Virus record (IMG/VR): IMGVR_UViG_3300037484_000296
Span: 1 to 64,000 of that record
Reading direction: 5' to 3' (one strand)
DNA from: a virus
Lineage: Duplodnaviria; Caudoviricetes
Length of the DNA: 64,000 nucleotides
Within the stretch, counting starts at the first letter, position 1. Each line of letters starts with the position of its first letter. This document shows positions 3,393 to 59,173 of this stretch, one piece after another. Position numbers and translations under genes: made by a program. Below the pieces are notes generated by a model. The model was not told the DNA's origin and did no database searches. It saw only the letters and a list, made by a program, of their open reading frames with translations.

Positions 3393-4133
3393 ATGGCGGT
3401 CAAAACAATAACAACCTCATATGACTCGGAAGTGACTCTTGTCATTACCGTGATTGACGATACATCCGGAGACATCCTGGACGATACCGATGGAGCGTTC
3501 CGTTCTGAGTTGACGGCAGCCTTGCCCACAGTGGCGCTGCTTGAGCACACTATTGCCAATGGTTTCGATACGGACATTCTCGGAAGGTACGAACGCTCTG
3601 AGAACCGAATACCATGGCCTGATGGGAATAAAACTGTCTTATTCCGGGAATCCGGATCAAGCACTGTGCTATTACAACAGGCCATGAGGACCGAAAATGA
3701 TATTGAGGTAGAGTATGCCCTGACCGGGACTTTAGCCGCAGGCGTAACGGTAACAGTAAATCCAACACAGGTAGGGAAGGGAGTGCTTACGCAACTGGTA
3801 ATTAAAACTAGCGGAGCTACCATCAAAGTCAAGCGTGGAGATGTGCATTATCGGGGGTTCAATCTTGGAGCGGATTTTTACAAGGCAAGCGCGAAATACT
3901 ATTTCTGTGCGAAACTCGTACAGACCGACGATAACAGCACGGCAATCGTAAATCGCGAAATGACCGTAACGGATGCGGCGAATTGCTCGATGAACATCAC
4001 GTTTACGTCCGCAGAACTGGCAACGGTAGCGATCTACTTCGCGGAAATAGAGCGTCGGGATTCAGATGGAACCAGCAACCCCCGGGCCTGCTGGGAAGGG
4101 AAGCTTGATATTTCGCAGGATACGAGGCAGTAA
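3393..4133 (+). CDS. virion protein with C-terminal BppU-N-like Ig-type domain
   Basis: AAGGAG RBS; C-terminal pattern IKVKRGD...YFAEIE...EGKLDI resembles BppU N-terminal domains. Confidence 0.45.
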   Translation: MAVKTITTSYDSEVTLVITVIDDTSGDILDDTDGAFRSELTAALPTVALLEHTIANGFDTDILGRYERSENRIPWPDGNKTVLFRESGSSTVLLQQAMRTENDIEVEYALTGTLAAGVTVTVNPTQVGKGVLTQLVIKTSGATIKVKRGDVHYRGFNLGADFYKASAKYYFCAKLVQTDDNSTAIVNREMTVTDAANCSMNITFTSAELATVAIYFAEIERRDSDGTSNPRACWEGKLDISQDTRQ

Positions 4134-26826: not shown

Positions 26827-29800
26827 ATGCCGATTGTATCGGATAAAGAGTTTGAAGGGATAAGTTCTGCAAAATCAGGCCAGATTCTTGATGAGTCTGA
26901 CTTTATGAAAATTGCCCCAAATGTCCCCAAACCAGATACGGGAGTTGCGTCTATGGAAGCTCAGGCGTCTACCATTCCGCAGCCTAAGCCTGTTGCGAGC
27001 GCTATGCCTGATTTGTCCACTCCCGTACAGCCGACAAGCGCAATGCCGGACTTGAAACCCGACGCGTCCCCTGTTTCCATAAAGAATGTCGCCAAAACAT
27101 TAGGACAGGGCGCAATGGACGTAGCGGGCGGGGTATCCTATCTTTCGCAATTTGTAAATCCTATGGATCTCGTGCTGAAAGCCGCAGGCCGTAAAACCCT
27201 GGGCGAAAGCGGAATGGAGCTTTCCGAGAAGGCAAGTAAGGCGCTGGAAGAATCTATTCCTGAAGCAGAGCGCCCGAGGCCCATTTTCTCCGAGAATACG
27301 AAAATCATCGAACCGATACTCAAGGGAGAACTTCCGACCATTGAGCTTAACCCTGAAGCAAGATTCAGCGACGTATTCATGCAGGGAGTACGGCAGGTTC
27401 CCCAATTTTTCGGAGGCATTGCGGGAAAATCTGAAAAGGCCGTATCTCTTGCGAATACGATTGGACAAAAGGTACTTCCAAAGCTCGGATCAACGCTTGA
27501 GCAGAAAGCTATCAGTATGGCCGAGAAGCACCTTGCTAAAACGGGGATGAATCTCGGTACAGATGCCGCTCGCAAATATGCAGAAAACATAATCGGGCAG
27601 ACCATCATGCAGGCCGGCATCGGAGCGGCGCAAACCGGAGGCATGGACGCTGCTTCAGCCTATACTGATGTAATGAACATGAAGCCTGAAGAGCTTCAGA
27701 GTACAGAATACAAGGACACCTATAACGATCTTCTTGCAAAAGGGCAAAACCCGGAAGACGCTAAGCGAATTCTTGCCAACGGGATTGCAAATCAGGTTTT
27801 TATTAAAACGGCGCCTTCGGGCATTCCGTCTCAACTTTTGGAATTTGTTCTTCCTGAAATATTGCACGGCGGCAGGCTGAAAAGGTCAGTCAAAGGATTC
27901 CTTGCAGGCGCTCCCGGAGAGGCTTTGCAGGAAGGGTACGAGCAGAGAATCCAGAACGTTGAAGAGCAACGGGCTAATCCTGCAATAAATCCAGAACAAG
28001 GCGTAGCAGAATCAATGCTGCTTGGTGGGTTAATGGGCGGTCTTCCGGGTGCCGCGCAGGGATTAAAAGGACGTCCAGAAGCCAAAAAACCGTATGTGCC
28101 GAACCTTGAGAATCAATATTCCCCCGTCTTCCCGGATCTCACGATACCCCCGGCAGATAAAGCCGCTCCCGCAGCCCCGATAGCTGACTTCGATCTTACC
28201 TCCATGCAGCCGACCGAGCGAGGCCAGAAGATAATTTCCGCCATGCCCCAGATGCAGGCGCTCAAGGAAACCACGGCAGCATGGCGACAGGAAGCGGCTC
28301 AGGGCCGTCCGGCACCGTTTACCGGGCCGGGAACGGCAATGCCGCCCATAGATTTGACCGCGCAGGATATCTTGAGCCAGCAGGCAGAACCGCAGGGCCA
28401 GGAAGAGCGTGGCAGGCCCGTTCCGGTAATTCCGTCATATTCTACAGAGCAATTTGAGCCCGGAACGATCATGGACGCGGAAATTCCGACAAGGGAATTT
28501 ACGCCGCCTCCGCCCTCACAATTCGCTTCATCGGTGGAAAAAGCAAGAGCGAAGCAGGGGCCACGTAAACCGCTTGAAATGGCGAGGCCGACAGAAACGG
28601 CCATGCCTGCTTTAGAAGGCGAGATTATGTCCCCGACAGCGAAGCAAGGGGCCGTTCCTTCATTGGAAAGCAACATCATCGAGGGGAAGGCGATTGAAGA
28701 GGATCGGGAACTTACAAGAAAGATAGATCAGGCCGCGTACAAGGCGGAAATGCCGAAGTCGGAAGCTCAAGCCTCTGCCGGAAACTATCGTCAAGGCGCT
28801 ATCGTGCCTGTTCAGGGCCTCAATTTCCGGGCTGAAACCCCGAGGGGCATGTTCCGGGGAGGAAAGAACAAAGACACCGGGGAAGTTTGGCGAACCAAAA
28901 TGGAAGCTCATTATGGAAAATTAATCGACCTCCCCGGCGCTGATGGGGATGCAATGGACGCCTTCATCGGGCCGAAACCGACCTCCCCGACCGTCTTTGT
29001 GGTAAATCAGGTCAACCCGAAGACGAAAGCCTACGACGAAAATAAAATTATGATCGGATGGGATTCTCTCGAATCAGCCAAACAAGCCTATATGGATCAC
29101 TACGCAAAAGGCTGGCAGGGCTTCGGCGGTATCGTTCCCATGACCGCAGAGCAGTTGAAGCAGTGGGCGACCAAAGAGAACGTGAAGAAGCCTGCCCCGA
29201 TGCTCCCGGCACCGGAAGCGAGGAAGGCGCTACCAGCGCCAGAAATTGCAGGGAAGCCGACAAGTGCAATGCCGGAAAGCTTACAATTGCCGCCCGAAAG
29301 GTTGTCAATTCCCGATCAAAAGGTTGTCAAAAGGCCGGTCCAGGCAGAGCAGAAGGCACTCCCAGCGCCGGAGCCCGTTTCACCGCCCGTTGAAACCGCC
29401 CCGGACAGTGAAACCAAGCCCTCTTTCGACGAACCCCGCGCAAAGAAGCTGATCGAAAAGCAGGGCATGATTTACAAGGGAACGCAGGAAGACGCTGACG
29501 GGAACCCGGTGGACGTTTTATTTAACGATCCTCAGACCGACAACGCAACCTACACGCTCCCGGTCGGCAAAGTAAACGCCATGACCATCGCCCGGAAGAT
29601 CCGAGAGAAGAGGGCAGAGTTTGCGAAAGCGCAGAAACCACAAGAAAAGGTTGTGGAACCGGAGAAAAAAGAAACTCCAATTGTCAAGGAATCCTTACAA
29701 GTTGGCTCCACCGTCCGCGTAGGGAACTCCCCTGAAGTGCATACTATTGAGAGAGAACTTCCCCAAACTGAATCCGAAAAGGAACTCGGAGAAAAGTATT

Positions 29801-32800
29801 TTGACGTAAAGAACTCTAAAGGAGAGATCGATACTTACGAGGCAAAGGATTTAAAGCCCGTAAAAGTAGCGGAGAAAAAAGAGGAGGTGGAAGGCGGCTC
29901 GAAAGTCAGGACGATCCACGCTCTCATTGAATCCGGCGACAAGGAAATTACCCGCAAGGAAATAGCGAACCTCTACGAAGTGAAGCAGAAGCAGCTTTAC
30001 AAAGGCCACATCATGACCGCCGGGGATGTTATCAGGGATTACCTGAAGCCGAACGGGATTAAGGTTGTGGGGAAGAAGACGGAGAAGCCATCTATAAAGA
30101 CAACTTTAACAGTTGCCGGGAAAGGAGGGACGCCGAATGAAAAAGCAGTGCGACAAGAAGATGCCGATGATGCCGCAGCCGAAGCCGGGCAAAAAGAAAA
30201 AGTAGCGACGACAACAGTAAAGTTGGGCGGGAAAACTGAGAAAACGGCCATGCCGGACACCGCCCAGACTTCACATTTTCAAAAACTCAAAAAAGAACTT
30301 GCCTCGCTTAAAGGTAAGAATGACGAACAATCTCAGAAGCGCAGGGTTAACATCCTAGACGAACTCGAATCGTACCAGGAAGAAACTGCGCCTACTCCTG
30401 AAAAAATAAAGTCAGACAGGCAGGCCGCGGATGAATTTTTAAAGAAAAAACTCACTGAATCCCAGATAGCCGGGGTAGCCGTCCGTCAGCAGGAAGAAAT
30501 CCCGAAAGAGGTTGTGAAGGATGCAGTCGAGGCCGCTCCCGGAACGACCGCAAAGGAACTCAAGGCTCAAAAGAAATTCCTGATCGAGCATGTTGACGAG
30601 GCGATTAAGGATGCGCCGGAAGAAATCGAAGGGCTTGACCGAAAAGTTCAGCAAATTAATGACATAAATAATAAAGCAAAAGCGGCTTACGACAAAGCTG
30701 CGAATCTTCGCCACTACAAGAAAGATGAAGATCAAGTACAAAAGTTGTTCTCTGAACGAGAAGCATTTCATAGGCAGGCGCGTGAGATTCAGGCAACTAT
30801 CCCATCCGTAACCATAGAAGTCCCAAATGACGGAAACTTTACCGTATACAATGATAAAGCTACGCTCAAGAAGTTCAAAGAAATTGTAGCGAAGCAATTC
30901 CCGACGACGCCCGAGAAGGCGAAGAACTTGACGCAGCCTAGTGGGAAGGCGAGGGGATACCGAGCTCCGTCAGAACTGGAAGAGGGTATAGACTTCAAGC
31001 TGAATGGAAAGCCTGCATATACTAACGGGCACCTTTTGCTTCTTGGAGAGACAAAGGCGATCCCCGAAACTCTAGCGAAAAGATGGGGCGGGGCAGACAA
31101 AGAGACAAACCAGGAAAACCGCGAACGTCTCGCGGAGCAAGCAAAAAGACTTTTCGCGGAAAACGCAGAAAAAGCGAAGTTGCCCGTTGGCAAGATCAAA
31201 TTCGTCGCGATTGACGAAAAGCCATACAATCCGGCAGATAAGAAGAACGACTTCCCTTACGGAGTGGCCGATTATCCAATTAGAGGGGAGAAGCAAAGTA
31301 CTACAGTTCTTATTTCTGGTGACGTGTCAAACGCGATCAGCACAGACTATTACCAGCACATCATAGACCACTACCCAGATGCAACGTTTAAAATCGGCGT
31401 GGAAATGTCTAAGGGCGACAATATATCCCCGGTCGGCGTCTACAGTAAAGGCAAACACGCAGGCATAGTTATGCCGTGGCGCTCGTCCGACGCGGTACAG
31501 ATTGCCCGCGAACACATGCAGGAAGAAAGCGCAAGCGGAAAGACGGAGAGCGTGAAGGCCCCTAAACAGGAAGAGATAAAGTCCGAGGCCCCGAGGGAAG
31601 CGCCAAAATACGCCTCAAGGGATTCCGACTTCACCAAAATCTCCGACTATATAAGCAAGAACTACGGCTCAAAAGTCAACATTCCCGCCTTCACTTCCAA
31701 GTTGCGGGAAATGGTAAAAAGTGCTACAATTACGGCAGAAAACGCGGAGAAAGTAATAGCTCGCCTGAAAGCAACAGGTGAAGTTACTATCCCCAAGTCG
31801 CAAGTGCTTGAAATAGCGGCAGAAGAGGGAAGCAATGTCACAAGACAAATCAAAGCCGAAAGATCGGGAGATAACTTGCGGGTCCCAGAGTCTTATGGCC
31901 CGCTCGAACTCGAAGCATTCCGCTTGGTTGAAGAAGATTTGGGGCGCACCATTGCCCCCTCTTCCAGAATCAGCCCAATCCAAAAACAAGTAGCAGGCGA
32001 ATGGGAAAAATTCACCGGCACGAAGATTCTTTTTGCCAACAGCAATAACATTCCTTTCGATGGTGCAGTCCCGAAAAAGGGTTACATCATTGTCTCTGAC
32101 GCACTCGATACGCCTCAACTCCTTTCAAAAGTAATCGGTCACGAACTGTTCCATAACATCGAACACGTAGCGAAACTGTCTCCTGAACTCGAAGCCAAGT
32201 ATAAGAACTTTTCCGAGATTGCCAGAAGGCTTATAACCGACGCCAAAGTAAAAGAGTTTATGGAGGTCGAGAATAAGAAGCGTGTAAATCGTCTCGGCAT
32301 GAAGCAGCTTGAGACCGTCGAAGAGGCATGGAGCGAATATGGCGCTCACATTCTGGGAGACGCGATTCGAGACAAGCGATTCTATGAGCGCATGTATCAG
32401 CAGGATCGTAACCTATTTGAAAAGTTTGTTGACTACATTGTAGGAGTATTCAAGAAATTAAAAATCCTTTCTCCTGATGTGGTAGAGAGTGAATATTACT
32501 CCCCCGAACAGGCGGTAAGGCTTATTAATGAATCTTCGGATTTGTTTGCTCAGTATCTTCGGGTAAAAGATGATTTCGGGGTAGTGTCCGGGGAGAGTGC
32601 GCAGGGTCCGGCGTATTCGACGAAACCAAATCAGAAATCACTTGATTCAATTGTGGGCAAATGGGAAAAACTTGGAGTCGCAATAGACGCTTTTGACTAT
32701 CGCAACAAAAAGAATACTCGCATCCCTCGTCAATTATTGTCGATTAACCGAATTGAGGTAGACAGAGACAAGCGCAAGCGCGGACTCGGCACTATGGCGA

Positions 32801-35800
32801 TGCACGACCTGACAGATTTTGCTGATGAGAATGGATTGCGCATCGAGCTTTCCCCGGATGATAGTTTGGGGGCTACGTCAAAAGGCAGGCTCAAAGAATT
32901 CTACAAGCGTTTCGGATTTGTAGAAAACAAAGGGCGCAATAAAGATTTCCGCACTTCGGCAACAATGTACCGTGAAGCTATCACCGCTGAAGGCCAACCC
33001 CTCTACGCCGCTCAAGGCATAGCAGGAAAAGGTATGTCTAAACACGATGCAATTTTCGAGATGAAGAAGTTGGATATCGACTTTGACAATCTGGAAAATT
33101 TTGTCGTTGTGGAAAATGAAGCGAGACTTCCCGAAAACATTCAGAATGATATGTTGTCTAAAGGCCTTTCTGGGACTATTGAAGGGGCCTATGACGCTGA
33201 CGCGAATGCTTTCTATATCATCGCGGGGAATATAGCCTCGGAGAAAAGATTGCAGCAAGTTGTTCAGCATGAGTTAGTTCATAAGGGTCTTCGTAACGTT
33301 CTCGGTCCCAGAATCGAACCCATATTCACCGCGATAGGGAAAAAGTACAGAAACGAAATTCGGGAAATTGCAGACGAATATAACCTGAACGTAAACAAGA
33401 AGACAGAAATGCTCACGGCAGTAGATGAGTTTATAGCCCGATACGGCGAAGAGTACAAGGAACAACCGCTAATCAAACGAATGATCGCAATAGTCCGTAG
33501 CTGGCTTAGGAACCACGGCTTCACAGTAGACTGGTCAGACAACGATATTCTTAACCTTGCCGGTGCCGCCCTTAAAGCCGAGGGCATGGGAGAAGGGGTA
33601 AGGTACTCGTTTGCCGGGAAGAAAGCAAAGGGATTCAACGAGGCTCAAGGGAAGTTCTCCGACCTTGCGGACAGGCAGGAGAGGTTTGAGATTGATGATA
33701 ACAAGGCAGAACTGCAAAATATTAAACTTGATAGCGAAGGAGTAGCGAATAGAACTATTTTACTTTCTGAAGTGCTTAGCCATGCCGAACTCTTTAAGGC
33801 GTATCCTGAATTTAAAAGTATGCTGACAAATATCAGTATTGACCCTAGCCTAGAAGAGAGCAATGGACGATTTGACGAGGGAACGCCTGACACTAAAAGG
33901 TATTTTGGCCGCGAACCTGAAATAACAGTGAATGCTCGTAATTTGGAAGAAGCAAAAGATGTCCTGCTGCATGAAATACAACACGCACTTCAAGTAAGGG
34001 AGAATTTCGCAAAGGGCGGAATGCCAACGGTGGGGGGAGCAACGGAGTTGAAAGACCGCTTTGAAGAAATGCAAGACGAGTATAATCGTTTGAAGAAAAA
34101 ACTGTGGGCCGAGCGAACGACAAGAGAAAATGCACGATTTGGTACGCTTGAGAATGAAATACGATTGCTCGCCAAGAGACTTGAAGGAGAATCAGTTGAT
34201 CGATATCGCCGCCTCTCCGGCGAAGAAGAAGCCCGTCGCGTCTCCGCTCGCGCCGACATGACCGCAGAAGAAAGGCTTGGCACTCCTTACGAACGTACTG
34301 ACCTTAGAGAAGGAGAAGAGAGGATCGTCAGGAGAGAGGGAGGGGTTGCGGAATCTAAAGAATCTGGTAAAATACCCCCCATGACCCCAAAGAAGGGGGC
34401 GGGCGAAAAACCCACTGAGAAAAACCCTGTAACGCCCGGAAGTGGGAATCAAGTTTATCGGTCGCGAGGTCCTGAAGATGCGCAATTAATGCGCGAAGAA
34501 GACCCGAACGGAAGTCTTGCAAACTACGATAAGCAAAGTCAGCGTGAATGGCTACGCGGCGCCAACCCCCCGTCGGATGGTAAAATTACGCTGTATCGCG
34601 CAACGCCGGAAGGAAAAGAAATTGCAGCGGGGGATTATGTAACAAGCAGCCGCAAGTACGCCGAGGACCATATTAAAAACAATCTCGGAGGTGAGGGTAA
34701 GATATCGCAAATCAGCGCAACGCTTGATGATATTTATCCTGCCGATGGGCCGGGAGAGTTTTGGTACGCTCCAAAAAACATCCTCACTGAAAAACCCGAG
34801 AGCAAGCCCGAGGGTGGGAAGTGGACGGCAAAGGGATGGGTAGTTGATTTTAACCCACAGCCTATACTTGATAAGTATGGCCTCAAAAATGGCGATGAAG
34901 ATATTTTACAAAAATTCGCAGGTGAAGGCGGGTTTATAAGCGATCTTTCTCGCTCTCAAGGGGAAAGGTACAACGGCTTAGAGCAGCAAGGTTTTATAGA
35001 AAGGAAGCATCAGGACGTTGGCCCTGGGGAATTAATGGGACAAGGTTTCCCGGCCAAAGAAGTTGATAGGATGATATTGACTGACAGGGGAAGAGAACTC
35101 TTGTCAGGGATTAAGCGTGTCCACCGGGAAGCGGAGAAGAAATTTTTCGATCAATTAGCGTCCTCTGACTCCCCCCGGTCGCCACAGTCGGGCGACCAAG
35201 CAGCACTCTCACGTTCATTTCAGGAAGGAGAAGAAAATGTGCAAGGTAATGAAGGCTTGCCAGAATCCCAACCCGGAATGGGTGAGGTTTATGGAGAGCC
35301 TGGCGCGGGAAGAGAGGGAGTTAATAAACTCAGGCCCGCTTCTGTCGGGAGCGAGCAAGGAGATAGACGAGAGGATAGAACTACTAGAGGCGCTAATGGG
35401 CCGATACTTAGCAACCCGTCCTTCCGCAAATGGTTTGGAAACTCTGTAGTCACCGTGGATGGGAAGGCGGGATCGGAGCCGCTGGTGGTGTATCATGGAA
35501 GCCCGATAAAAGGGTTTGAACAATTTGATAAAAACAAAATAAATCCATATGACCCTGATGGCCCGTATAATGGATTTTATTTTACCTCAGACGAGAAAGA
35601 CGCACGGCGCTCAGGAGACTTCCCGTGGGGCAGGCCCAATACAAAAGGGGGCGGGGAAACGAGAGCGTATTATTTAGCCCTCCAGAATCCCGCGACAAGA
35701 AGCTACGCTCGTAAAGTGGCAAATGAAATTGCAAATACTTGGGAACAAAAGTATCCAGAAGCACGGTCCTTGAATGACGCCGTTAGAATGGATTTGCAGA

Positions 35801-38800
35801 CTCGTGGACACGATGGGATAATTCACGAACCCTATTTTGTTCCGAGCAAAGAAGAATTTGAGCGTAGCGGTAAGGTTTCACTGAACAAGTTTGGTCGAGA
35901 ATTAAGAAAAAGCGAAGAATATCCGGGCGGAGTGGACCTGTATAGCGGGAATGAACATATAACCGGGTATACAGATTTTAATGAAGCTGCGGATATGAAC
36001 AGGCACGGGGTGTTTATTGCTTTTGAACCCACTCAAATCAAATCCGCAACCGGGAACACTGGAGAATTCTCCCCTGAGAACCCCAATATTCTTTACTCCA
36101 AAGCCCGTGGCGCGAAGGTGGCGAGTGAGGCTACCGAAAAACTAACTCCTTATTCAGCAAAGCCGGAAAACAATATTTTCACGGAAATAGCGAGCAACCC
36201 AAAACGGTTCTACAGATCATACCGTCAGTCATTCGCGGATAACGATCTTTCTAAGCTGGAAAGATTGATCGGCCTCCCGCACTGGATTGCCAAAAATTTT
36301 GCAGACTTCGACCGGGTGATGGATGTTGAAGAGATCCGACAAGAAAACAGGGACACCCTGAGAAACGGACTGCTTTCGGCAAGGATCAAGAAGAACAAAG
36401 ACGGAATGCACGAATTCCTTGCCCTCCCGAAAGAGTCAAAGAAGAAGGTTGAAAAGTACCTACTTAAGTCCGACAAGGAAAATAGGGTGATGAATCCCGA
36501 CGAATTGAAGGGGCTCGATACCGAAAGCAAATCGGCCTACTATTCTTGGAAGCGGGCTATGGATGCGGCGCTTGAACTTCGTATGCAGTGGCTTGAAAAA
36601 ATGAACCTGCTTCCTTACGAGGACAAGTCCTGGTTCGAATCGCTCAAAAACGTCACATCTCAAAAGGGAAAGAAGAATAGGGATAAAACTAAAAAACAGG
36701 TACTTTCATCAATACCGGAAGATAGCCATAGAGCTTTCAACGAAGCCTATAACGCGGTGATTTTCGGGAGAACCGAGATTGCCAAGATGCGCAGACAGAT
36801 AGGCCGAATCAAGTTCTATGTGCCCCATCAGAGAGAAGGAAATTATGTAGTTGACGTTCATGATCCGAGAGTAGCAAAGCCGACTGAATGGAATGAGAAG
36901 TTCATGGGTCCGTGGAAGGGAAGGCTCATTTGGTCGGAAAGATCTACAAATAAGGTCAAGGGAACAGAGACCCTGCTGAGACTTCAGCAAAAGTTTCCGG
37001 GCATGAAGATGTCTGAATACGTTTCAAAACAAGTGCCGGAAGAGATTTATCAGGCGATTTCCGAGGCAGCCATTGAAAGGTTCGTCGAGGGCAGTTTGAA
37101 ACGCGCCGAATCCAAGGAAGGGGTATCTCCTGAAGCGGCTCACGCTCTTAGAAATGCGCTCTTTGAAACCGTAACCGACGACCTCAGAAAGCGGGGATGG
37201 GAGAGACACGCTATTCATCGGTCGGAAACATGGGTCGGCGGATATGAAACGGAAAATCTTGACAAGGCTTTTGTTGATTACATGTCCGGGCTGTCCGGGT
37301 CTTTGACAAAGATGGAAGCGGCGTATAGATATACTCAAGCATTAAAGCAAATCGACAAGAAAAAGACCGAACTCTACGCCTATGCGCAGAATTACGTTAA
37401 AAACCTGACCCGAAACCAGACGGATATCGACCGAAAAGTAGGAAAAGCAAAAGCGGCGGCGTTTTTCATGTATATTACCGGGAAATTAAGTATGGTGCCT
37501 ATCCAGCTTACGCAGAACTTCGTTACAGGCATTCCCCAGCTTGGACGCTACACAAGGGGCGCGGGAAGGAAATACAGCAAAGCTATGGCCGACGTAGCGA
37601 CGCAGGGGCGCATTTCTAAGCTTTCCCCTGTCGAGCAAGCTGCTTTAAAGGACTTTCACGACAAGGGATTAGATCAAGCGAAATTCTTAAACGACATTAT
37701 GGGTCAGGTAGACGGCTATACGAAGGGAGCTTGGAATAAGGTTAACCGGGGACTCGGATTGCCCTTTTTCGCAATGGAACATTTTAACCGAAAATCTGCT
37801 TTTCTTGCGGCATACCGTGTTTTTGAGAATAAAAAAAACATCGACAATGAAAAGGGCTATGACGCAGGGGCCTTTAAGAGAGCTACAGATTTTGTACACG
37901 ATACCCATTTTCAGATGGGAAGGGCAAATAAGCCTGAATTGGCAGCCGGGCCGGGGCCAGGCGGGGCATTGCTTAATGCGGCATATACCTTCAACTCCTT
38001 CTCTCACAACTTCGTACTATCTCTCGCGGATGGGTTTAGGACGGGGAACGCAAAAGAGGGGGGATTATTGGCGCTCAGAAGTCTTTTTTGGCTTACTATA
38101 CTTGGCGGAATGACCTCAATACCCTGGTGGGATGACTTTTTGGATATCATGGAGAAACAATTCGGCTGGACTACACGGGCGACCGAGCGAAAATTCCTTC
38201 GAACTATCGGCGGGGAAACGCTGGAAACTTTCGGCATGCACGGGCTCCCGGCGCTTCTTGGATTTGACCTGTCGGGAAGCATGAAAACCGCGATCCCATT
38301 CCATGAGGGAGTTTCCGAGACCGCTATGGGGGTTTATGGTGGACTTCTGGAAAAACTGTCGAGGGGGGCAAAGTCATTCAATCGGGGAGACTATTGGAGG
38401 GCGGCTGAACAGTGGAGCCCGTTATTCCTTGAAAACGCCATGAAGGGCGTAAGAATGTATGGAGAGCCTGCCACCACTCCGGGCGGCAGAATAGTTTATG
38501 ATGCGGAAGGAAATCCGATAACCTTGAACGCAAAGGAGGCCGCAGGACAATTCTTTGGGATCAGGCCGGAAAAGGTATCCACAGCGCAGGCCAAGCGGCA
38601 GGAAATGATAAATACCGTCACCTACTACGCGGAACAGAAACAAGCGATCTACGATGAATTTGCGCTGGCTAATACCGCAGAGAAGCGAGCGAGAGTCATG
38701 AAAAAAGTGCGACAGTTCAATAGTAAAGTGAAAGACTTGAAAGGAGCGGTGCCGCTTATTACGGCGGCAACTTTAAGGCAGTCAATTATGAGAAAGCGCA

Positions 38801-38844
38801 GGCCAGACAAGAGGGCTATGTTATTCGACCGGGCGGTTCAATAA
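26827..38844 (+). CDS. giant polyvalent internal virion protein (iPPase-like, three HExxH peptidase-like, GNAT-like, LPD23-like, ADP-ribosyltransferase-like, C-terminal large polyvalent-type domain)
   Basis: 4005-aa ORF; GADGDAMDAFIGP; HELFH, HELVH, HEIQH; RKRGLGTMAM..L..FAD; RFEIDD; FRKWFGNS...EPLVVYHGS. Confidence 0.85.
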   Translation: MPIVSDKEFEGISSAKSGQILDESDFMKIAPNVPKPDTGVASMEAQASTIPQPKPVASAMPDLSTPVQPTSAMPDLKPDASPVSIKNVAKTLGQGAMDVAGGVSYLSQFVNPMDLVLKAAGRKTLGESGMELSEKASKALEESIPEAERPRPIFSENTKIIEPILKGELPTIELNPEARFSDVFMQGVRQVPQFFGGIAGKSEKAVSLANTIGQKVLPKLGSTLEQKAISMAEKHLAKTGMNLGTDAARKYAENIIGQTIMQAGIGAAQTGGMDAASAYTDVMNMKPEELQSTEYKDTYNDLLAKGQNPEDAKRILANGIANQVFIKTAPSGIPSQLLEFVLPEILHGGRLKRSVKGFLAGAPGEALQEGYEQRIQNVEEQRANPAINPEQGVAESMLLGGLMGGLPGAAQGLKGRPEAKKPYVPNLENQYSPVFPDLTIPPADKAAPAAPIADFDLTSMQPTERGQKIISAMPQMQALKETTAAWRQEAAQGRPAPFTGPGTAMPPIDLTAQDILSQQAEPQGQEERGRPVPVIPSYSTEQFEPGTIMDAEIPTREFTPPPPSQFASSVEKARAKQGPRKPLEMARPTETAMPALEGEIMSPTAKQGAVPSLESNIIEGKAIEEDRELTRKIDQAAYKAEMPKSEAQASAGNYRQGAIVPVQGLNFRAETPRGMFRGGKNKDTGEVWRTKMEAHYGKLIDLPGADGDAMDAFIGPKPTSPTVFVVNQVNPKTKAYDENKIMIGWDSLESAKQAYMDHYAKGWQGFGGIVPMTAEQLKQWATKENVKKPAPMLPAPEARKALPAPEIAGKPTSAMPESLQLPPERLSIPDQKVVKRPVQAEQKALPAPEPVSPPVETAPDSETKPSFDEPRAKKLIEKQGMIYKGTQEDADGNPVDVLFNDPQTDNATYTLPVGKVNAMTIARKIREKRAEFAKAQKPQEKVVEPEKKETPIVKESLQVGSTVRVGNSPEVHTIERELPQTESEKELGEKYFDVKNSKGEIDTYEAKDLKPVKVAEKKEEVEGGSKVRTIHALIESGDKEITRKEIANLYEVKQKQLYKGHIMTAGDVIRDYLKPNGIKVVGKKTEKPSIKTTLTVAGKGGTPNEKAVRQEDADDAAAEAGQKEKVATTTVKLGGKTEKTAMPDTAQTSHFQKLKKELASLKGKNDEQSQKRRVNILDELESYQEETAPTPEKIKSDRQAADEFLKKKLTESQIAGVAVRQQEEIPKEVVKDAVEAAPGTTAKELKAQKKFLIEHVDEAIKDAPEEIEGLDRKVQQINDINNKAKAAYDKAANLRHYKKDEDQVQKLFSEREAFHRQAREIQATIPSVTIEVPNDGNFTVYNDKATLKKFKEIVAKQFPTTPEKAKNLTQPSGKARGYRAPSELEEGIDFKLNGKPAYTNGHLLLLGETKAIPETLAKRWGGADKETNQENRERLAEQAKRLFAENAEKAKLPVGKIKFVAIDEKPYNPADKKNDFPYGVADYPIRGEKQSTTVLISGDVSNAISTDYYQHIIDHYPDATFKIGVEMSKGDNISPVGVYSKGKHAGIVMPWRSSDAVQIAREHMQEESASGKTESVKAPKQEEIKSEAPREAPKYASRDSDFTKISDYISKNYGSKVNIPAFTSKLREMVKSATITAENAEKVIARLKATGEVTIPKSQVLEIAAEEGSNVTRQIKAERSGDNLRVPESYGPLELEAFRLVEEDLGRTIAPSSRISPIQKQVAGEWEKFTGTKILFANSNNIPFDGAVPKKGYIIVSDALDTPQLLSKVIGHELFHNIEHVAKLSPELEAKYKNFSEIARRLITDAKVKEFMEVENKKRVNRLGMKQLETVEEAWSEYGAHILGDAIRDKRFYERMYQQDRNLFEKFVDYIVGVFKKLKILSPDVVESEYYSPEQAVRLINESSDLFAQYLRVKDDFGVVSGESAQGPAYSTKPNQKSLDSIVGKWEKLGVAIDAFDYRNKKNTRIPRQLLSINRIEVDRDKRKRGLGTMAMHDLTDFADENGLRIELSPDDSLGATSKGRLKEFYKRFGFVENKGRNKDFRTSATMYREAITAEGQPLYAAQGIAGKGMSKHDAIFEMKKLDIDFDNLENFVVVENEARLPENIQNDMLSKGLSGTIEGAYDADANAFYIIAGNIASEKRLQQVVQHELVHKGLRNVLGPRIEPIFTAIGKKYRNEIREIADEYNLNVNKKTEMLTAVDEFIARYGEEYKEQPLIKRMIAIVRSWLRNHGFTVDWSDNDILNLAGAALKAEGMGEGVRYSFAGKKAKGFNEAQGKFSDLADRQERFEIDDNKAELQNIKLDSEGVANRTILLSEVLSHAELFKAYPEFKSMLTNISIDPSLEESNGRFDEGTPDTKRYFGREPEITVNARNLEEAKDVLLHEIQHALQVRENFAKGGMPTVGGATELKDRFEEMQDEYNRLKKKLWAERTTRENARFGTLENEIRLLAKRLEGESVDRYRRLSGEEEARRVSARADMTAEERLGTPYERTDLREGEERIVRREGGVAESKESGKIPPMTPKKGAGEKPTEKNPVTPGSGNQVYRSRGPEDAQLMREEDPNGSLANYDKQSQREWLRGANPPSDGKITLYRATPEGKEIAAGDYVTSSRKYAEDHIKNNLGGEGKISQISATLDDIYPADGPGEFWYAPKNILTEKPESKPEGGKWTAKGWVVDFNPQPILDKYGLKNGDEDILQKFAGEGGFISDLSRSQGERYNGLEQQGFIERKHQDVGPGELMGQGFPAKEVDRMILTDRGRELLSGIKRVHREAEKKFFDQLASSDSPRSPQSGDQAALSRSFQEGEENVQGNEGLPESQPGMGEVYGEPGAGREGVNKLRPASVGSEQGDRREDRTTRGANGPILSNPSFRKWFGNSVVTVDGKAGSEPLVVYHGSPIKGFEQFDKNKINPYDPDGPYNGFYFTSDEKDARRSGDFPWGRPNTKGGGETRAYYLALQNPATRSYARKVANEIANTWEQKYPEARSLNDAVRMDLQTRGHDGIIHEPYFVPSKEEFERSGKVSLNKFGRELRKSEEYPGGVDLYSGNEHITGYTDFNEAADMNRHGVFIAFEPTQIKSATGNTGEFSPENPNILYSKARGAKVASEATEKLTPYSAKPENNIFTEIASNPKRFYRSYRQSFADNDLSKLERLIGLPHWIAKNFADFDRVMDVEEIRQENRDTLRNGLLSARIKKNKDGMHEFLALPKESKKKVEKYLLKSDKENRVMNPDELKGLDTESKSAYYSWKRAMDAALELRMQWLEKMNLLPYEDKSWFESLKNVTSQKGKKNRDKTKKQVLSSIPEDSHRAFNEAYNAVIFGRTEIAKMRRQIGRIKFYVPHQREGNYVVDVHDPRVAKPTEWNEKFMGPWKGRLIWSERSTNKVKGTETLLRLQQKFPGMKMSEYVSKQVPEEIYQAISEAAIERFVEGSLKRAESKEGVSPEAAHALRNALFETVTDDLRKRGWERHAIHRSETWVGGYETENLDKAFVDYMSGLSGSLTKMEAAYRYTQALKQIDKKKTELYAYAQNYVKNLTRNQTDIDRKVGKAKAAAFFMYITGKLSMVPIQLTQNFVTGIPQLGRYTRGAGRKYSKAMADVATQGRISKLSPVEQAALKDFHDKGLDQAKFLNDIMGQVDGYTKGAWNKVNRGLGLPFFAMEHFNRKSAFLAAYRVFENKKNIDNEKGYDAGAFKRATDFVHDTHFQMGRANKPELAAGPGPGGALLNAAYTFNSFSHNFVLSLADGFRTGNAKEGGLLALRSLFWLTILGGMTSIPWWDDFLDIMEKQFGWTTRATERKFLRTIGGETLETFGMHGLPALLGFDLSGSMKTAIPFHEGVSETAMGVYGGLLEKLSRGAKSFNRGDYWRAAEQWSPLFLENAMKGVRMYGEPATTPGGRIVYDAEGNPITLNAKEAAGQFFGIRPEKVSTAQAKRQEMINTVTYYAEQKQAIYDEFALANTAEKRARVMKKVRQFNSKVKDLKGAVPLITAATLRQSIMRKRRPDKRAMLFDRAVQ

Positions 38845-45270: not shown

Positions 45271-46149
45271 TTATCCTTTCTTTTGCTCGTTATTATAATA
45301 GGGCGTGTCTCCCCATTGGAATCCGGGGTCACGGCACATCAATTCGTGCGCCCTCTTATAGATATATTCCAATAAAGCTATATGCTTTTTATATCCATCG
45401 GGTCCGCACCAGTGAAGTTGTCCGCGTTCAATATCTGAGCATCCGTCATATTCCCCTAGCCCGGACATATATTTTTCTGCCTCATCTATGTTTTCCGTGC
45501 TGTCTCCCGGAGAATGGATTGCATTTTTTAGGAGAAAAAATGCTTCGCTGTTATCTTCTGCCCGCATAGCTATTTCGAATACTTCAAAGTCTGCTCGCTC
45601 ATCTTGAACAGACCAGCGGATGCGAAAACCAAATTCTCCGAATATGTCTTCTATTATAATTATTTTACCGGTCTTGTTAATCCGGTTTTCGTTTTTCAAT
45701 GGTTTTATTTGCAACGTCCTTTATGTATTCTTTGTCAAAGTCTTCTTGAGTATACGCAAGGCATTCTCCAAGCCTTGTTGCATAAACCCAGTACGTTTTT
45801 CCACAATGCTCGCACACGCTCTCGAAAAAAGCAGGGCTTTGCTTTGTCATTGAATTGCATACCATGGCGTCACAGTAGGGGCAGTCTCCGAAGATCATGA
45901 TTAGCCTTTCTTCTTATCTGGATAATATTCATCTTTATGGCGCTTAATCAGGAGTACCGTTGCCTTAGCGCACTTTTGAGCACCGTGGATCATGGAATAG
46001 AAATCAGCATCAGGGCATTCCCTGAATTCTCTGAGAAACCTTAGTGATTCTTCGAGTTTTCTTTTTGCTTTGAATATGTCTTCTGGTAGGGTACGCAATG
46101 GCTTCCTTTTAATTGGTCGGGGCGGCCCGATTTGAACGGGCGGCAGCAC
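45271..46149 (-). other. three hypothetical CDS (45271-45714; 45677-45898 Zn-ribbon CPYC/CEHC; 45901-46149, start uncertain)
   Basis: Coupled ORFs. Confidence 0.55.
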
Positions 46150-46190
46150 GGTCCCAGGCCGTGAACTCTACCAGGCTGAGTTACGCCCCG
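46114..46190 (-). tRNA. tRNA-Pro(TGG) with C32/C33 anticodon loop
   Basis: CGGGGCG/CGCCCCG acceptor, ACTC/GAGT D stem, CACGG-CCTGGGA-CCGTG, GCCCG-TTCAAAT-CGGGC, A73, CCA. Confidence 0.9.
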
Positions 46191-47254: not shown

Positions 47255-47341
47255 TGGTGGGGGTGTAGGGATTCGAACCCCCAGCTCCGAAGAGCCACAG
47301 ATTTACAGTCTGCTCCCGCTCGCCGCCTCGGGCGCACCCCC
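47255..47341 (-). tRNA. tRNA-Tyr(GTA)
   Basis: GCAGA-CTGTAAA-TCTGT anticodon arm, long variable arm, TTCGAAT, G1:C72, A73, CCA. Confidence 0.9.
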
Positions 47342-51004: not shown

Positions 51005-51250
51005 TTATGGCCTTTGCTTTGCCTCTGCCTCAAACGTGGCCCGAGTTTCAACATCCCATGTTGTTATCTGCTTCCCGTCGTCAACGCGTACCGCGATAGG
51101 TTCCCGTCCAACTTTTTCATAGTGCGCCGACTCACAGATATATTTTTCGACCGCCCTCACAGCAGCATCTTCAGCGCTGTGTACCTCGTTGACCCCTGTG
51201 AGACTTTCCCATCCGTCTTCATGCCAAGATTCAATTTGGACTTTATACAT
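51005..51250 (-). CDS. hypothetical protein in putative decayed cassette
   Basis: AAGGA RBS; stop in GTTATGG core. Confidence 0.65.
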   Translation of the reverse strand: MYKVQIESWHEDGWESLTGVNEVHSAEDAAVRAVEKYICESAHYEKVGREPIAVRVDDGKQITTWDVETRATFEAEAKQRP

Positions 51251-51264
51251 TACATCCTTTCCTT

Positions 51265-51298
51265 ACGCGCTTCGCGGCGTGTCAAATTGGCGTTAAAC
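51265..51298 (+). mobile_element. truncated attC (central hairpin, L', R')
   Basis: 22 bp identical to attC at 58155 (CGCTTCGCGGCGTGTCAAATTG), then TTGGC spacer context and GTTAAAC. Confidence 0.65.
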
Positions 51299-51517
51299 GA
51301 GTTCTATTTCGTCAAGTTCAAATTTCAATTTCATATAATCGTAATTATCCCCTTGAGTTTCCCACACGTTGCCTTCAGCGTCGGTCATTGGCAAGGGGAA
51401 TTGCACACAGGCATATTGTCCGTCAAAGTTATACAACTCGCCTACTGTGTTCTTTGGCGGGCAAGGCGTTCGTAATTCCTTAAACGGTTTTATTACTCGG
51501 ACTTTTATGGTGTCCAT
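51293..51517 (-). CDS. hypothetical protein in putative decayed cassette
   Basis: GGAGG RBS; stop in GTTAAAC core. Confidence 0.65.
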   Translation of the reverse strand: MDTIKVRVIKPFKELRTPCPPKNTVGELYNFDGQYACVQFPLPMTDAEGNVWETQGDNYDYMKLKFELDEIELV

Positions 51518-53684: not shown

Positions 53685-54851
53685 CTATTTATTATGTCGC
53701 CTAATTTCCTCTTCCTGTTTCTTCAAATATTCTAGCGTCTTATCGGCTACGCTCTTCTGTTCTTCCTCGCCGGTGATATTATACCGGGTAAACATGGAGC
53801 CCGTTTTCCAGCCGCCGATTTGCTTAATGTCTTCCTCGGGATTTCCGGCGTTCTTCATATTCTTCGCTGCGCTTCGTCTGATATCGTGGAAGATGGTTTC
53901 ATTCGCCTTTTTGAATTTGTTCTCTTTGCAGGATCGACACTTTAAATCCTCTCGCTTTTCTCCGAGAGAGAGATATTCAAAGTTGCCGCACTTTTTACAT
54001 TTGAACCGGATCTTTTGCCCGGTCCTCATTAACGCGGATTCCCATGCTGTGCGAAAATCCGTCACACGCTTCCCCTTGAGGTTGACGATATATTCACATT
54101 CAGGATATTCCCGCTCGGTTTTTTGTACCCAATCGAACACTTCTTGATAGAATTGACCTCTGAGGAAAAACCCTCGCTGTTCGTTATTCTTGGTCTCTTC
54201 CAGCAAAACGTAGCCGGTGATTTTGTTGAACTGATGGATTTTGAGCGTGAAAACTTCCGTCTTCCGTACTGTGCTAGCATATGAAATGAGTAGCGCTATT
54301 TGCAAATAGTCCGGCAGTTCCGGCTTAAACCTTAAATAAAATTCATGGTCAATGAATCCCTTTCTTACGTTGTTCTCTTCCAACTTTATTATTTTGGGTA
54401 TCCGCGCTACAAGCTGCGGCTCGTGATTAAAGCCTAAAGAAAACATTCGTTGAAGTGCCGACAGATAGCGATTTATATATGCGTTAGAATCTCCCTTGTT
54501 CTGACAAAATATAATAAATGATTTGATACGAGAGGGGATATGGATAGCTTTTTCTTTCTTGCCGAAAAACTTTTCCATGCGCTTGATTCTGTTGATTTGG
54601 CTGGTTAGAGACTTGCGATTATTGATCGTGTAATCTTCAATAAGAAGGCGGGAGAGGTCTTCAAAATCAACCTCGTCGATTTTCTTGCCCTTGTATTCAT
54701 GCTTTAAAACTTCGGCTTCGCGAATAGAAAGTTGCGCCTCGGCTTCTCTTTTTTTTGTCCACTTGGGCGATCCATGCTCATATTGTCTTTTTTTGTGCTG
54801 ATCGACAAACCAGATATGCCAGTACTTCTTGCGCCTGTATACGCCTCCCAT
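53685..54851 (-). CDS. int: tyrosine integrase with Zn-ribbon insertion
   Basis: Catalytic set R (STVRKTE), K (TKNN), HDIRR, GGWKT, Y (FTRYNI); N-terminal arm-binding-like domain; nearby attP. Confidence 0.92.
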   Translation of the reverse strand: MGGVYRRKKYWHIWFVDQHKKRQYEHGSPKWTKKREAEAQLSIREAEVLKHEYKGKKIDEVDFEDLSRLLIEDYTINNRKSLTSQINRIKRMEKFFGKKEKAIHIPSRIKSFIIFCQNKGDSNAYINRYLSALQRMFSLGFNHEPQLVARIPKIIKLEENNVRKGFIDHEFYLRFKPELPDYLQIALLISYASTVRKTEVFTLKIHQFNKITGYVLLEETKNNEQRGFFLRGQFYQEVFDWVQKTEREYPECEYIVNLKGKRVTDFRTAWESALMRTGQKIRFKCKKCGNFEYLSLGEKREDLKCRSCKENKFKKANETIFHDIRRSAAKNMKNAGNPEEDIKQIGGWKTGSMFTRYNITGEEEQKSVADKTLEYLKKQEEEIRRHNK

Positions 54852-54861
54852 AGGTTATCCT

Positions 54862-55056
54862 CTATCTGCCGTATGATTTTTTATCCCAGCACTCCTGGCA
54901 CTTATCGCCCAAAAGATGAAGGGCAAAAGCGATGATCTTTTCCCGGTCCCATTCCCTCAGGAGGTGAGCGGTAATCATTTTTTCATCATTGAGCACTTCG
55001 ACTGCTTTTCTTACTCCTGCCTCATACGATGTTTTACACATAGCCACCTCGATCAT
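54862..55056 (-). CDS. hypothetical protein in putative cassette 1
   Basis: Likely start MIEVAM or MCKTSY adjacent to attC R'' box. Confidence 0.55.
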   Translation of the reverse strand: MIEVAMCKTSYEAGVRKAVEVLNDEKMITAHLLREWDREKIIAFALHLLGDKCQECWDKKSYGR

Positions 55057-55106
55057 AACGAGTCGTTTGTTTCGGTCGCTCCGCGCAGGACAACTCGTCG
55101 TTATGC
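55053..55106 (+). mobile_element. attC: integron attC site (54 bp)
   Basis: TCATAAC-GAGTC-GTT(T)GTTT-15 nt-GGACAAC-TCGTC-GTTATGC; canonical spacing, extra base at L'' position 4. Confidence 0.75.
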
Positions 55107-55351: not shown

Positions 55352-55405
55352 GCATAACAAAACGCTCGAAATTGACGCTTCGCGCAAGTCAGCTAAGCGT
55401 TAGAC
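55352..55405 (+). mobile_element. attC: integron attC site (54 bp)
   Basis: GCATAAC-AAAAC-GCT(C)GAAA-15 nt hairpin-AGTCAGC-TAAGC-GTTAGAC; extra C at L'' position 4. Confidence 0.85.
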
Positions 55406-55645
55406 CGCCTTCACTACGCCGTCCTCTAAAAACTTATCGAGATCTGCCATGCGGCGATAGTGAATACGCGCTCCTTTCTTGACGTAAGATATCTCATGCT
55501 TATACCGCAATTCCCTGATTGCCGTCAGCGACCGGCCAATGTAAAGCGCGGCCTCCCATTCTTCAAGGGTAGGCTTCCGAGAAATTACCGTATAGTATGC
55601 GGCTTGTTTATCCAGGGTCAATGCTTCGTATTCTTTCTGGGTCAT
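55400..55645 (-). CDS. excisionase-like winged-helix protein
   Basis: LEEWEAALYIGRS...IRELRYKHEISYVKKGARIHYRRMADLDKFL pattern (HTH_17/Xis-like); upstream of int. Confidence 0.7.
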   Translation of the reverse strand: MTQKEYEALTLDKQAAYYTVISRKPTLEEWEAALYIGRSLTAIRELRYKHEISYVKKGARIHYRRMADLDKFLEDGVVKAV

Positions 55646-57477: not shown

Positions 57478-57869
57478 TCGATCCTTCTTTCTCCCGGCGC
57501 GTCAGCCGGGTGTTCATCGGCGCTGCGTGGATGTAGAATTTCGTCACTTAACTTGGTGTAGCGTCACATGAGTTTTGCCGTTTTTATAGTAGTGTACCCA
57601 TGCCTGAACTTTATCTATTAACGATATTAATAGGCCGGCCGTTACCAGTGCTGCTAATACTCCGAAGTAGATAGACCAAAACATGTTATTCTCCTTTCTC
57701 GTTCCTCAATTCTCTGATATTGCAGCGCCACCGTCACGCCCGCTGTTGCGGGCGTAGCGAATGATCGCCCCATTGTGTGCTACCATCGCCGCCGAAGACG
57801 TGGTGCGGTTTCGATCTTTACGACCTTCCCGTCTGGATCGATAAGACGAATGCCTCCCTGCCTCATCAA

Positions 57870-57921
57870 TGAAAACTCTATAGCGTCCGCGCTTCGCTTG
57901 CGCGTGACGCTCGCGTTATCT
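57870..57921 (+). mobile_element. attC: attC site with degenerate R''
   Basis: CGT(C)CGCG-CTTCGCTTGCG-CGTGACG-CTCGC-GTTATCT; L boxes pair 7/7 with one G.T. Confidence 0.65.
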
Positions 57922-58143
57922 GCTTACCCGCTTTACGCGAACCGCATCTATCCAAATCTTCTTTTCGTTCGGAGTTATAATTCTTATGCGGTCCTCATAC
58001 GTTTGCTCGACCATGCCTTGCCGCCCATACCCACCGTGATCGTAAAACACAACCGACCCTTGCGGAAAGCTCATCGCCGTGGCCGCAGAAAGCAGCACTC
58101 GCGCCTTCCGTAGATTTTCGTATGCTTTTTCAAAATGTCGCAT
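57916..58143 (-). CDS. hypothetical protein in cassette 3
   Basis: ORF fills the space between two attC sites; stop in GTTATCT core. Confidence 0.7.
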   Translation of the reverse strand: MRHFEKAYENLRKARVLLSAATAMSFPQGSVVFYDHGGYGRQGMVEQTYEDRIRIITPNEKKIWIDAVRVKRVSR

Positions 58144-58154
58144 GGCAACCTCGC

Positions 58155-58211
58155 AGATAACAATAAAATCGACAACGACACGCTTCGCGGCGTGTCAAAT
58201 TGTCGTTATTC
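58155..58211 (+). mobile_element. attC: integron attC site (57 bp)
   Basis: AGATAAC-AATAA-AAT(C)GACA-18 nt-TGTCAAA-TTGTC-GTTATTC. Confidence 0.85.
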
Positions 58212-58279
58212 TTCCGTACCTCGTATCTCCTGCAAAGTTGGCCTCTGTTCGTATTTCGAGAAACCTTCTGGCCGGCATT

Positions 58280-59173
58280 TTACCTTCCCGCCTTGGTTTT
58301 GTTGCTTTTTGCTTCCACGCCGGGAATGTCGAGCCTTGCCTTATATGAGGTTGCTTGCCGGTTAAGAAATACCTGATCGGCGGCTATGGCCTGAATTGGG
58401 GCTCTCTTTGCTGTTGAGCTCCACTTGCGAATGAAAGATATGATTTCCTTTTTAGATACACTTTCCGGCATCTTCTCCGCAAGGTCGAGCAATTCAGTGC
58501 AGGTTGACTCGTGTGCAACTGCCTTGCAAAGCAATCCGAGATTAGTTACTGCGGCGCTCCATCTTTCCTGTGTAAAGTTACTCTTTGAAGCCGTCCATGA
58601 TGATCCTACCCTTGGGGCTACGACCGGGGCAGGGGTATCAAGCACTTTTACCGCCTCTTTTTGGATCTCGTCGGCTTCCTCTTGGTTGCCAGAGTCGGCA
58701 AGGTGCTTCGCTTCCAACTCTAGGGCAGCGGCGGCGGCGACCCTTTCTTCTTCCTCTCGTTTCCGAGCTTCTTCCTGGGCCTGACGCTCTTTCTCTTGCC
58801 TGATCCGTTCCTGTTCGTCTTCCCATGCGATAAGTTTGCTGTTGAAAATGTCCTTTGCCTTCTCGTATTCCTCGATGGGAGTTCGGAACAAGTCCATAAT
58901 CTGCGCTTTGGCCTCATCCATCGGCCTCGTGATTGCAAGGCGCTTGTCAGTCAGAGACTTAATGCGCTTCTTTATAGTGCTCAGTTCTTCGCCGCAAGTG
59001 GTATGATCTTCCGGCGTGATAATTATAGCCTGAGTAGCCTTGGAAACAACGCTGCTTGCAAGCTGCAAATCAGCCTTTGTGTCGGGCGCGATTGTAGTTG
59101 ACGGTACGGCAGGGGTGGCGTCCATGATAGTTTTCTTTTCCTGCACTTCGGGCAATGTTGTGGTCGGGGTCAT
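58280..59173 (-). CDS. coiled-coil phage protein of recombination module
   Basis: Long heptad/EK-rich helix; adjacent to exonuclease. Confidence 0.7.
   Translation of the reverse strand: MTPTTTLPEVQEKKTIMDATPAVPSTTIAPDTKADLQLASSVVSKATQAIIITPEDHTTCGEELSTIKKRIKSLTDKRLAITRPMDEAKAQIMDLFRTPIEEYEKAKDIFNSKLIAWEDEQERIRQEKERQAQEEARKREEEERVAAAAALELEAKHLADSGNQEEADEIQKEAVKVLDTPAPVVAPRVGSSWTASKSNFTQERWSAAVTNLGLLCKAVAHESTCTELLDLAEKMPESVSKKEIISFIRKWSSTAKRAPIQAIAADQVFLNRQATSYKARLDIPGVEAKSNKTKAGR

Follow-up and report, generated by a model that had tools for sequence, protein, structure and literature searches.

The window analysed here comprises the first 64 kb of a 90,267-bp IMG/VR virus record, which is rated as complete by CheckV. 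From 1 to 41.7 kb the + strand carries large genes, among them a lone ORF of 4005 aa (26827-38844) with a strong AT skew. Between 41.9 and 64 kb the minus strand encodes small early genes, two tRNAs (Pro, 46114-46190; Tyr, 47255-47341), a recombination module, an HTH_17 xis-like gene and a tyrosine integrase. The unit under study is located within this minus-strand early block and has a 297-aa gene (58280-59173, PHROG 'exonuclease') on one side and small ORFs on the other.

The unit, which we term the cassette, measures 290 bp (57916-58205, + strand) and runs from the TT of a leading core to the G of a right-hand box. Its borders follow from a complementarity rule described below, together with the borders seen in a homologous cassette on the groundwater contigs L005 and L006. 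Upstream lies an attC-like hairpin site of 52 nt (57870-57921, +) that forms part of the left neighbouring unit. Its G+C-rich stem of 5+5 bp contains a single bulged T and folds with -13.3 kcal/mol as ssDNA. The right-hand box of this site is a hybrid, as its G is its own and the following six bases are the first bases of the cassette. The leading core GTTATCTGC (57915-57923, +) is a 9-nt perfect reverse complement of positions 58153-58161, and the crossover at this core would lie between G57915 and T57916.

The cargo gene is encoded on the minus strand (57916-58143) and specifies a protein of 75 aa. Its TAA stop codon (TTA on the + strand, 57916-57918) falls within the leading core. As can be read directly from the sequence, the ATG at 58143 is preceded by an 11-nt leader (58144-58154, minus) with a GAGG ribosome-binding motif at 58152-58149. 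In front of the gene lies the cassette's own attC-like site of 57 nt (58155-58211, +). It consists of a left box (58155-58161), two stems (58170-58175/58200-58205 and 58177-58184/58189-58196) and a right box (58205-58211), and the hairpin folds with -11.8 kcal/mol as ssDNA. The right box is again a hybrid, with the crossover probably at 58205|58206, a position that is directly observed only in the relatives.

The original prediction was built on three 7-mers, GTTATCT (57915-57921), AGATAAC (58155-58161) and GTTATTC (58205-58211), of which the second was said to complement the first and to differ from the third. Both statements hold. The left box is complementary to the leading core at 9/9 positions, two more than claimed, and to its own right box at 5/7. 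The ORF had also been described as filling the cassette with its stop in the leading core, and indeed it occupies 228 of the 290 bp and ends at the position given above.

A strain-level mosaic adjoins the cassette. One 3.4-kb contig from a single sediment run swaps the 145 bases at 57551-57695, which encode a 46-aa membrane-like ORF, for 146 unrelated bases, and it diverges again past 57729.

Folds, cores and the junction rule

The 58155 site has the inverted boxes of an attC site, one ending in AAC and one starting with GTT, placed around stems of 6 and 8 bp. Known attC sites range from about 57 to 141 nt, and its 57 nt lie within this range. When joined as in a circle, the site folds with -15.8 to -16.4 kcal/mol for the top strand and with -17.4 to -18.4 kcal/mol for the bottom strand, closed by a 9-bp stem. 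In a 61-nt construct (-15.8 kcal/mol) this closing stem is followed by a one-sided loop of 9 nt, the 6-bp stem, bulges and the 8-bp stem. The one-sided loop stands in place of the classical spacer and L box, both of which are missing from the stable fold. Enforcing the classical parse of R box, 5-nt spacer and L box gives -9.6 as compared to -15.8 kcal/mol, which is about 6 kcal/mol worse.

GTTATCT, GTTATTC and AGATAAC each break the consensus GTTRRRY/RYYYAAC at two of its three R/Y positions. Other sites of the genome, with the cores GTTAGGC and GTTAGAC, do fit GTTRRRY. In addition, a search for IntI in the 90,267-bp record yielded no match to TIGR02249 at E<=0.001, and this phage genome holds no complete integron, i.e., intI and attI in one element. 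Given such cores, the penalty for the classical parse and a genome without IntI, calling the locus a 'textbook' cassette was an overstatement.

Each of the three 7-mers is present in 7-8 copies in 90 kb, the expectation for any 7-mer. A loose footprint, defined as a core followed by its reverse complement within 1.5 kb and then by a second GTT box, gave 144 matches in the genome versus 117.9±15.3 in shuffled sequences. The 7-mer footprint by itself is therefore not significant.

A junction test was carried out on eleven listed hairpin sites of the genome, which form 8 adjacent junctions. The sites were picked by hand and not by IntegronFinder. The complementarity rule is exact at 6/8 junctions, with perfect runs of 7, 9, 13, 8, 9 and 7 nt, and one further junction is complementary at 6/7. 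Upon permutation of the boxes among the junctions, only 39 of 200,000 permutations reached 6/8. The cassette is thus one instance of a real genome-wide pattern. A second exact junction inside the window (55100/55352) is found between xis and int.

Outside the window, a seven-site hairpin array on the + strand (genome 76837-79817; 4838-7818 of contig L002) directly follows the replication genes (Phage_rep_O). Within this array, each left box is exactly complementary to the right box one site earlier. The array cargo includes a Dam-family methylase (PF05869), whose stop codon falls within the box that follows, and ORFs of 124, 81 and 101 aa. Two further cargo genes (140 and 119 aa) form a reversed pair, and the strand that encodes them bears a promoter-like TTGACA. 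Two of the array sites (D, 78632-78688, and F, 79378-79434) are near-identical hairpins adjoining unrelated genes. Dense GGTAAC/GTTACC-type repeats, resembling origin iterons, occupy genome positions 75615-75760 (3616-3760 of L002) in the gene for replication protein O. One of the repeat copies complements the left box with which the array opens, a match that we regard as coincidental.

The xis gene (55400-55645) is separated from int (53685-54851) by a gap of 548 bp, which contains two small ORFs and hairpin sites at 55053-55106 and 55352-55405. In three relatives (L027-L029; xis 44-56% and int 48-49% identical) the corresponding spacing is 3-52 nt. Judged by this comparison, something has been inserted in the xis-int gap of this phage as well.

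The cargo gene and its relatives

A word-indexed protein search with the cargo protein returned the protein itself as the sole match, and an exhaustive HMMER search recovered 19 relatives at E<=0.001, which are 26-52% identical and mostly 75-90 aa long. The structure prediction proposed along with the original prediction was carried out as well. AlphaFold, run on an alignment of 17 sequences, predicts an N-terminal helix (residues 2-25) that packs against an SH3/Sm-like barrel of five strands (pLDDT 97, pTM 0.79). This model supersedes a poor one obtained from the single sequence (pLDDT 55). With 19 relatives and a confident alignment-based model, the cargo ORF is a real, conserved gene.

Pfam, PHROGs and NCBIfam name no family for the protein, and Foldseek found no match to its fold at E<=0.001 in PDB or BFVD. 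Weak resemblances were seen to Hfq, Tudor, SH3 and MscS-beta in PDB and to uncharacterised phage proteins in BFVD, and the neighbours in the ESM Atlas are unnamed phage and bacterial clusters only. A hint at defence or counter-defence, also part of the original prediction, finds no support in any family or fold match. The cargo is a small, confidently folded protein with no assigned function and as such a reasonable candidate for functional screening.

One relative (P0004; 49% identity by phmmer, 47% by tblastn) is encoded on the groundwater contigs L005-L008, where it lies among small genes that follow one another on a single strand. The gene is identical on L005 and L006, and its neighbours differ on both sides. 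The two contigs become identical at the AAC ahead of a three-way hairpin of 118 nt, which precedes the gene, and they part again at an AAC(G) about 30 nt past the stop. Within this unit, the bases after the hairpin and the bases before the final AAC are 14-nt perfect complements. Conserved flanks reaching past the G|TT borders in homologues had been named as an observation that would speak against a cassette. Instead, the identity between L005 and L006 ends exactly at these borders. A more distant homologue on L011 shows the same architecture. Its hairpin is homologous and differs by compensatory changes in the stem, its leader is conserved, and a complementarity of 11 nt is present.

Taken together, L005, L006 and L011 present three unrelated upstream genes and three unrelated downstream genes, and what they have in common is the gene with its front hairpin. 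The mobile unit in the relatives is therefore the hairpin plus the gene behind it. Homologues on L004 and L010 reside in tight operons without hairpins and hence the gene family is not always cassette-borne.

P0004 is the second unit upstream of an IntI in L005/L024. The integrase of this array scores 338.9 bits against TIGR02249 (cut-off 265) and matches IntI4 (PDB 2A3V) with an E of 1e-57. The L005/L024 contigs look phage-like, with a weak Phage_CP76 match, Acb2/Tad1, DUF5131, a second integrase, a DnaG-type primase and a DNA methylase, all on one strand. Of the proteins encoded on the IntI-bearing contigs L023 and L024, 33 were compared with the phage genome, and the cargo homologue alone gave a match, as expected for a gene travelling as a cassette.

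Several units of the L005/L024 array have conserved ends and no clear hairpin of their own. A duplicated 103-aa unit (L005 2043-2421 and 3262-3640, also in L024) is bordered by AAC on both sides and likewise has no clear hairpin of its own. One copy adjoins intI, and the contigs break inside the repeat.

The hairpin of the 58155 site belongs to a family with members on L006 (1238-1290), on L022 (726-778), a 76-kb viral contig without IntI, and on L003 (about 1093-1147), and with a half-site near 51265 of the window. The 57870 hairpin has a relative at about 3672-3725 of the array contig L006. Sequence relatives of the two hairpins on either side of the phage cassette thus occur in the groundwater arrays and in L022. 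In the gene-sense reading, 22 bases of the half-site (about 51230-51300) are identical to the left arm and loop of the 58155 hairpin. In place of the second arm it has the ribosome site of the gene that follows, which gives it the look of a decayed copy from the same site family. Screening 185,579 species genomes with a pattern for the 58155 family returned 10 scattered matches in unrelated phyla, which were taken as chance hits of a G+C-rich pattern.

No IntI was found in a second viral contig carrying these hairpins (G001). Comparison of this contig with one large protein of the phage gave no match, and a single protein does not settle whether the two are related. Neither blastn against a phage database nor searches of viral contigs with the 75-aa and 297-aa proteins gave a usable close relative of the phage, and hence none with an empty site. 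The contigs of two sediment runs bearing the locus, possibly the source of the record, contained the integrated form and no excised or empty one. As contigs are blind to rare forms, this has no bearing on mobility.

Polarity, alternatives and a proposed route

The complementarity rule is symmetric on both strands and therefore the boxes cannot tell which of the two flanking hairpins belongs to the gene. Two observations bear on this question. Firstly, the front hairpin stays with the gene in the relatives. Secondly, the 58155 family shows an asymmetry of its own. Between L006 and L022 the sequence identity stops at the AAC upstream and runs 12 nt past the GTT on the gene side, and an unpaired surplus of 7-9 nt is always present on the 3' arm of the gene-sense strand. 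In classical attC sites, the recombining bottom strand carries the extrahelical bases on that arm. Both observations support a site whose top strand is the + strand, with the hairpin placed before a gene that would be antisense to it, in line with what the original prediction had proposed. The gene would then not lie on the attC top strand, where bacterial cassettes have it. For this phage the assignment is made by analogy, as the 118-nt hairpin of the relatives is not homologous to the 57-nt one. The bulge sides among the eleven sites of the genome are inconsistent and do not set the polarity of all sites.

The same kind of cassette could instead have the classical polarity, with the minus strand as top strand, a cassette running from 58160 to 57876 and the hairpin at 57921-57870 as its own site. 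This arrangement satisfies the boxes equally well and produces a layout like that of bacterial cassettes (short leader, gene, stop 2 nt before an AAC-ending box, hairpin, GTT box), and the sole bulged base of the 57870 hairpin is on the arm expected for it. We consider it unlikely, since in L005, L006 and L011 the rear hairpin varies with the neighbourhood and the front one goes with the gene. Moreover, the borders of identity in the 58155 family run past GTT on the gene side and halt at AAC on the other, and the large unpaired surplus sits on the arm that fits the inverted polarity.

A different explanation dispenses with site-specific recombination. The gene would be an ordinary phage moron between terminator or RNA-stability hairpins, and the 9-nt complementarity would be due to chance or to RNA structure. 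On the sense RNA, a hairpin (58205-58170) is followed by a U-rich run and then by the ribosome site, and the fold of the region has a z of -2.4. Such a terminator-like stem with U run is seen at the 58155 site on the minus strand provided that the bulged extended stem is counted. In keeping with a moron, the loose 7-mer footprints remain at chance level, and attC sites and terminators are known to look alike (Qi et al. 2023, PMC9892861). However, the homologous hairpins of L006 and L022 lack the U run, and Rfam, which contains no attC model, gave no family match for 57500-58500. The exact junctions at 6/8, the shift of homologous gene and hairpin between unrelated neighbourhoods with borders exactly at AAC, and the IntI-linked array of the relatives are likewise at odds with a moron. 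We regard this explanation as very unlikely.

The integrase of the phage itself (53685-54851, minus) is an ordinary phage-type tyrosine integrase and not an IntI (phrog_1, 67 homologues). It contains a zinc-ribbon-like insert of 34 residues (283-316) between the catalytic core (Lys region) and the HxxR box, which matches PF09723 and TIGR02605, both below cut-off. The insert is presumably located roughly where IntI has its extra attC-binding segment. That this enzyme, or a host Xer-like one, moved the units in place of IntI is the least probable alternative: the insert, the position of the gene at the end of a cassette-bearing early operon (the place of IntI in L024) and the lack of IntI in the phage genome and in G001 speak for it, whereas the integrase belongs to a common family, its nearest relatives (L027-L029) occur in plain xis-int modules without adjoining hairpin arrays, and the relatives of the cargo gene are found in an array with a true IntI.

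We therefore favour the reading of 57916-58205 as an integron-type cassette, made up of one gene and one attC-like folded site, that sits in backwards polarity in the early operon of a temperate phage and was served by an IntI in trans. We consider this probable. The junction rule at 6/8, the hairpin and gene that move together in the relatives and the IntI-linked array all agree with the original prediction of an integron-type cassette whose circle was integrated at G|TT. Against it count a genome without IntI, off-consensus cores, a non-classical fold and inconsistent bulge sides. Further points against it are a polarity drawn from a non-homologous hairpin, the failure to find a cassette-less relative and the hairpin-less homologues on L004 and L010.

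The route of insertion could be as follows. The cassette would once have been a circle whose hairpin was closed by pairing between the 58153-58161 box and the stretch that today occupies 57915-57923. An integron integrase, provided in trans by a host or by a co-resident phage, would have acted at G|TT to recombine the folded strand with a hairpin site already present at 57870-57915, thereby leaving the cassette between G57915 and T58206. IntI as the maker of this insertion and the choice of the folding strand are both part of the model. The gene would be expressed as part of the early transcript of the phage, in the direction of the xis-int end and with its own GAGG site for translation. On the RNA, the front hairpin could act as a weak terminator or attenuator, although its U run is not conserved in the family.

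Beyond this locus, we give about even odds to a broader scenario. Sediment and groundwater phages may keep their own pool of backwards cassettes, with the hairpin first and the genes toward the integrase. Some of these phages would encode the IntI that shuffles the cassettes. Others, the present phage included, would only acquire them in trans, both as single units at hairpin sites of the early operon and in arrays. The 75-aa gene would then belong to this pool and be exchanged between otherwise unrelated phages.

Relation to known systems

Integrons are known chiefly as bacterial gene-capture devices, and reports of them in phages are few and recent. At the locus described here, a single cassette with clean borders sits in the early operon of a phage, and the family of its gene also occurs beside a true IntI on unrelated phage-like DNA. 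The locus makes the exchange of small early genes among phages by integron-type recombination testable in a concrete case, and its gene polarity runs counter to that of bacterial cassettes. Were such exchange widespread, it would account for some of the mosaic make-up of phage accessory regions. Integron surveys of the standard kind look for sense-strand genes with an IntI close by and would in that case under-count these systems.

Phage morons with intrinsic terminators resemble the locus in that a small accessory gene lies between G+C-rich hairpins in the early operon, one hairpin being U-tailed. In contrast, terminators leave unexplained the 9-nt complementarity across the junction, its recurrence and the precise AAC/GTT borders in the relatives.

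With classical cassettes (class 1; Vibrio IntI4/VchIntIA, VCR, PDB 2A3V) the locus shares the G|TT crossover, one promoterless gene per unit, a site length of 57 nt at the low end of the known range and relatives adjoining an IntI above the TIGR02249 cut-off. As in classical cassettes, the left box complements the first bases of its own cassette and not the adjacent right box. It differs in that the gene is on the strand opposite to the site, the cores are not GTTRRRY, the stable fold has no symmetric unpaired spacer or L box, and the genome has neither IntI nor attI. Transcription is predicted to proceed from phage early promoters toward the integrase end, whereas Pc of classical integrons directs it away from intI.

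The closest precedent is the description of integrons and 17 CALINs in phage genomes, some of the cassettes encoding methylases (Qi et al. 2023, Front Microbiol, PMC9892861). A CALIN is a cluster of attC sites without an integrase. In the same study, phage-borne attC sites were found to recombine with IntI1 (Qi et al. 2023, PMC9892861). Cassettes and attC clusters in phages are thus already published, and the backwards gene polarity seems to be unpublished. Neither a term search of Qi et al. 2023 (PMC9892861) nor a full-text literature search yielded a description of cassette genes that are uniformly antisense to their sites and read toward the integrase. The phage CALINs and single cassettes of that study (PMC9892861) are similar to the present ones in having attC-type hairpins that bound small genes in an IntI-less phage genome, in the orphan DNA methylase cassette, which also occurs in this genome, and in the idea of a bacterial or foreign IntI acting in trans. 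In contrast to that study (PMC9892861), the sites in this genome were picked by hand and not by IntegronFinder, every cassette gene is antisense to the polarity assigned to its site with the hairpin in front, and cassettes are also scattered singly in the early operon rather than just clustered.
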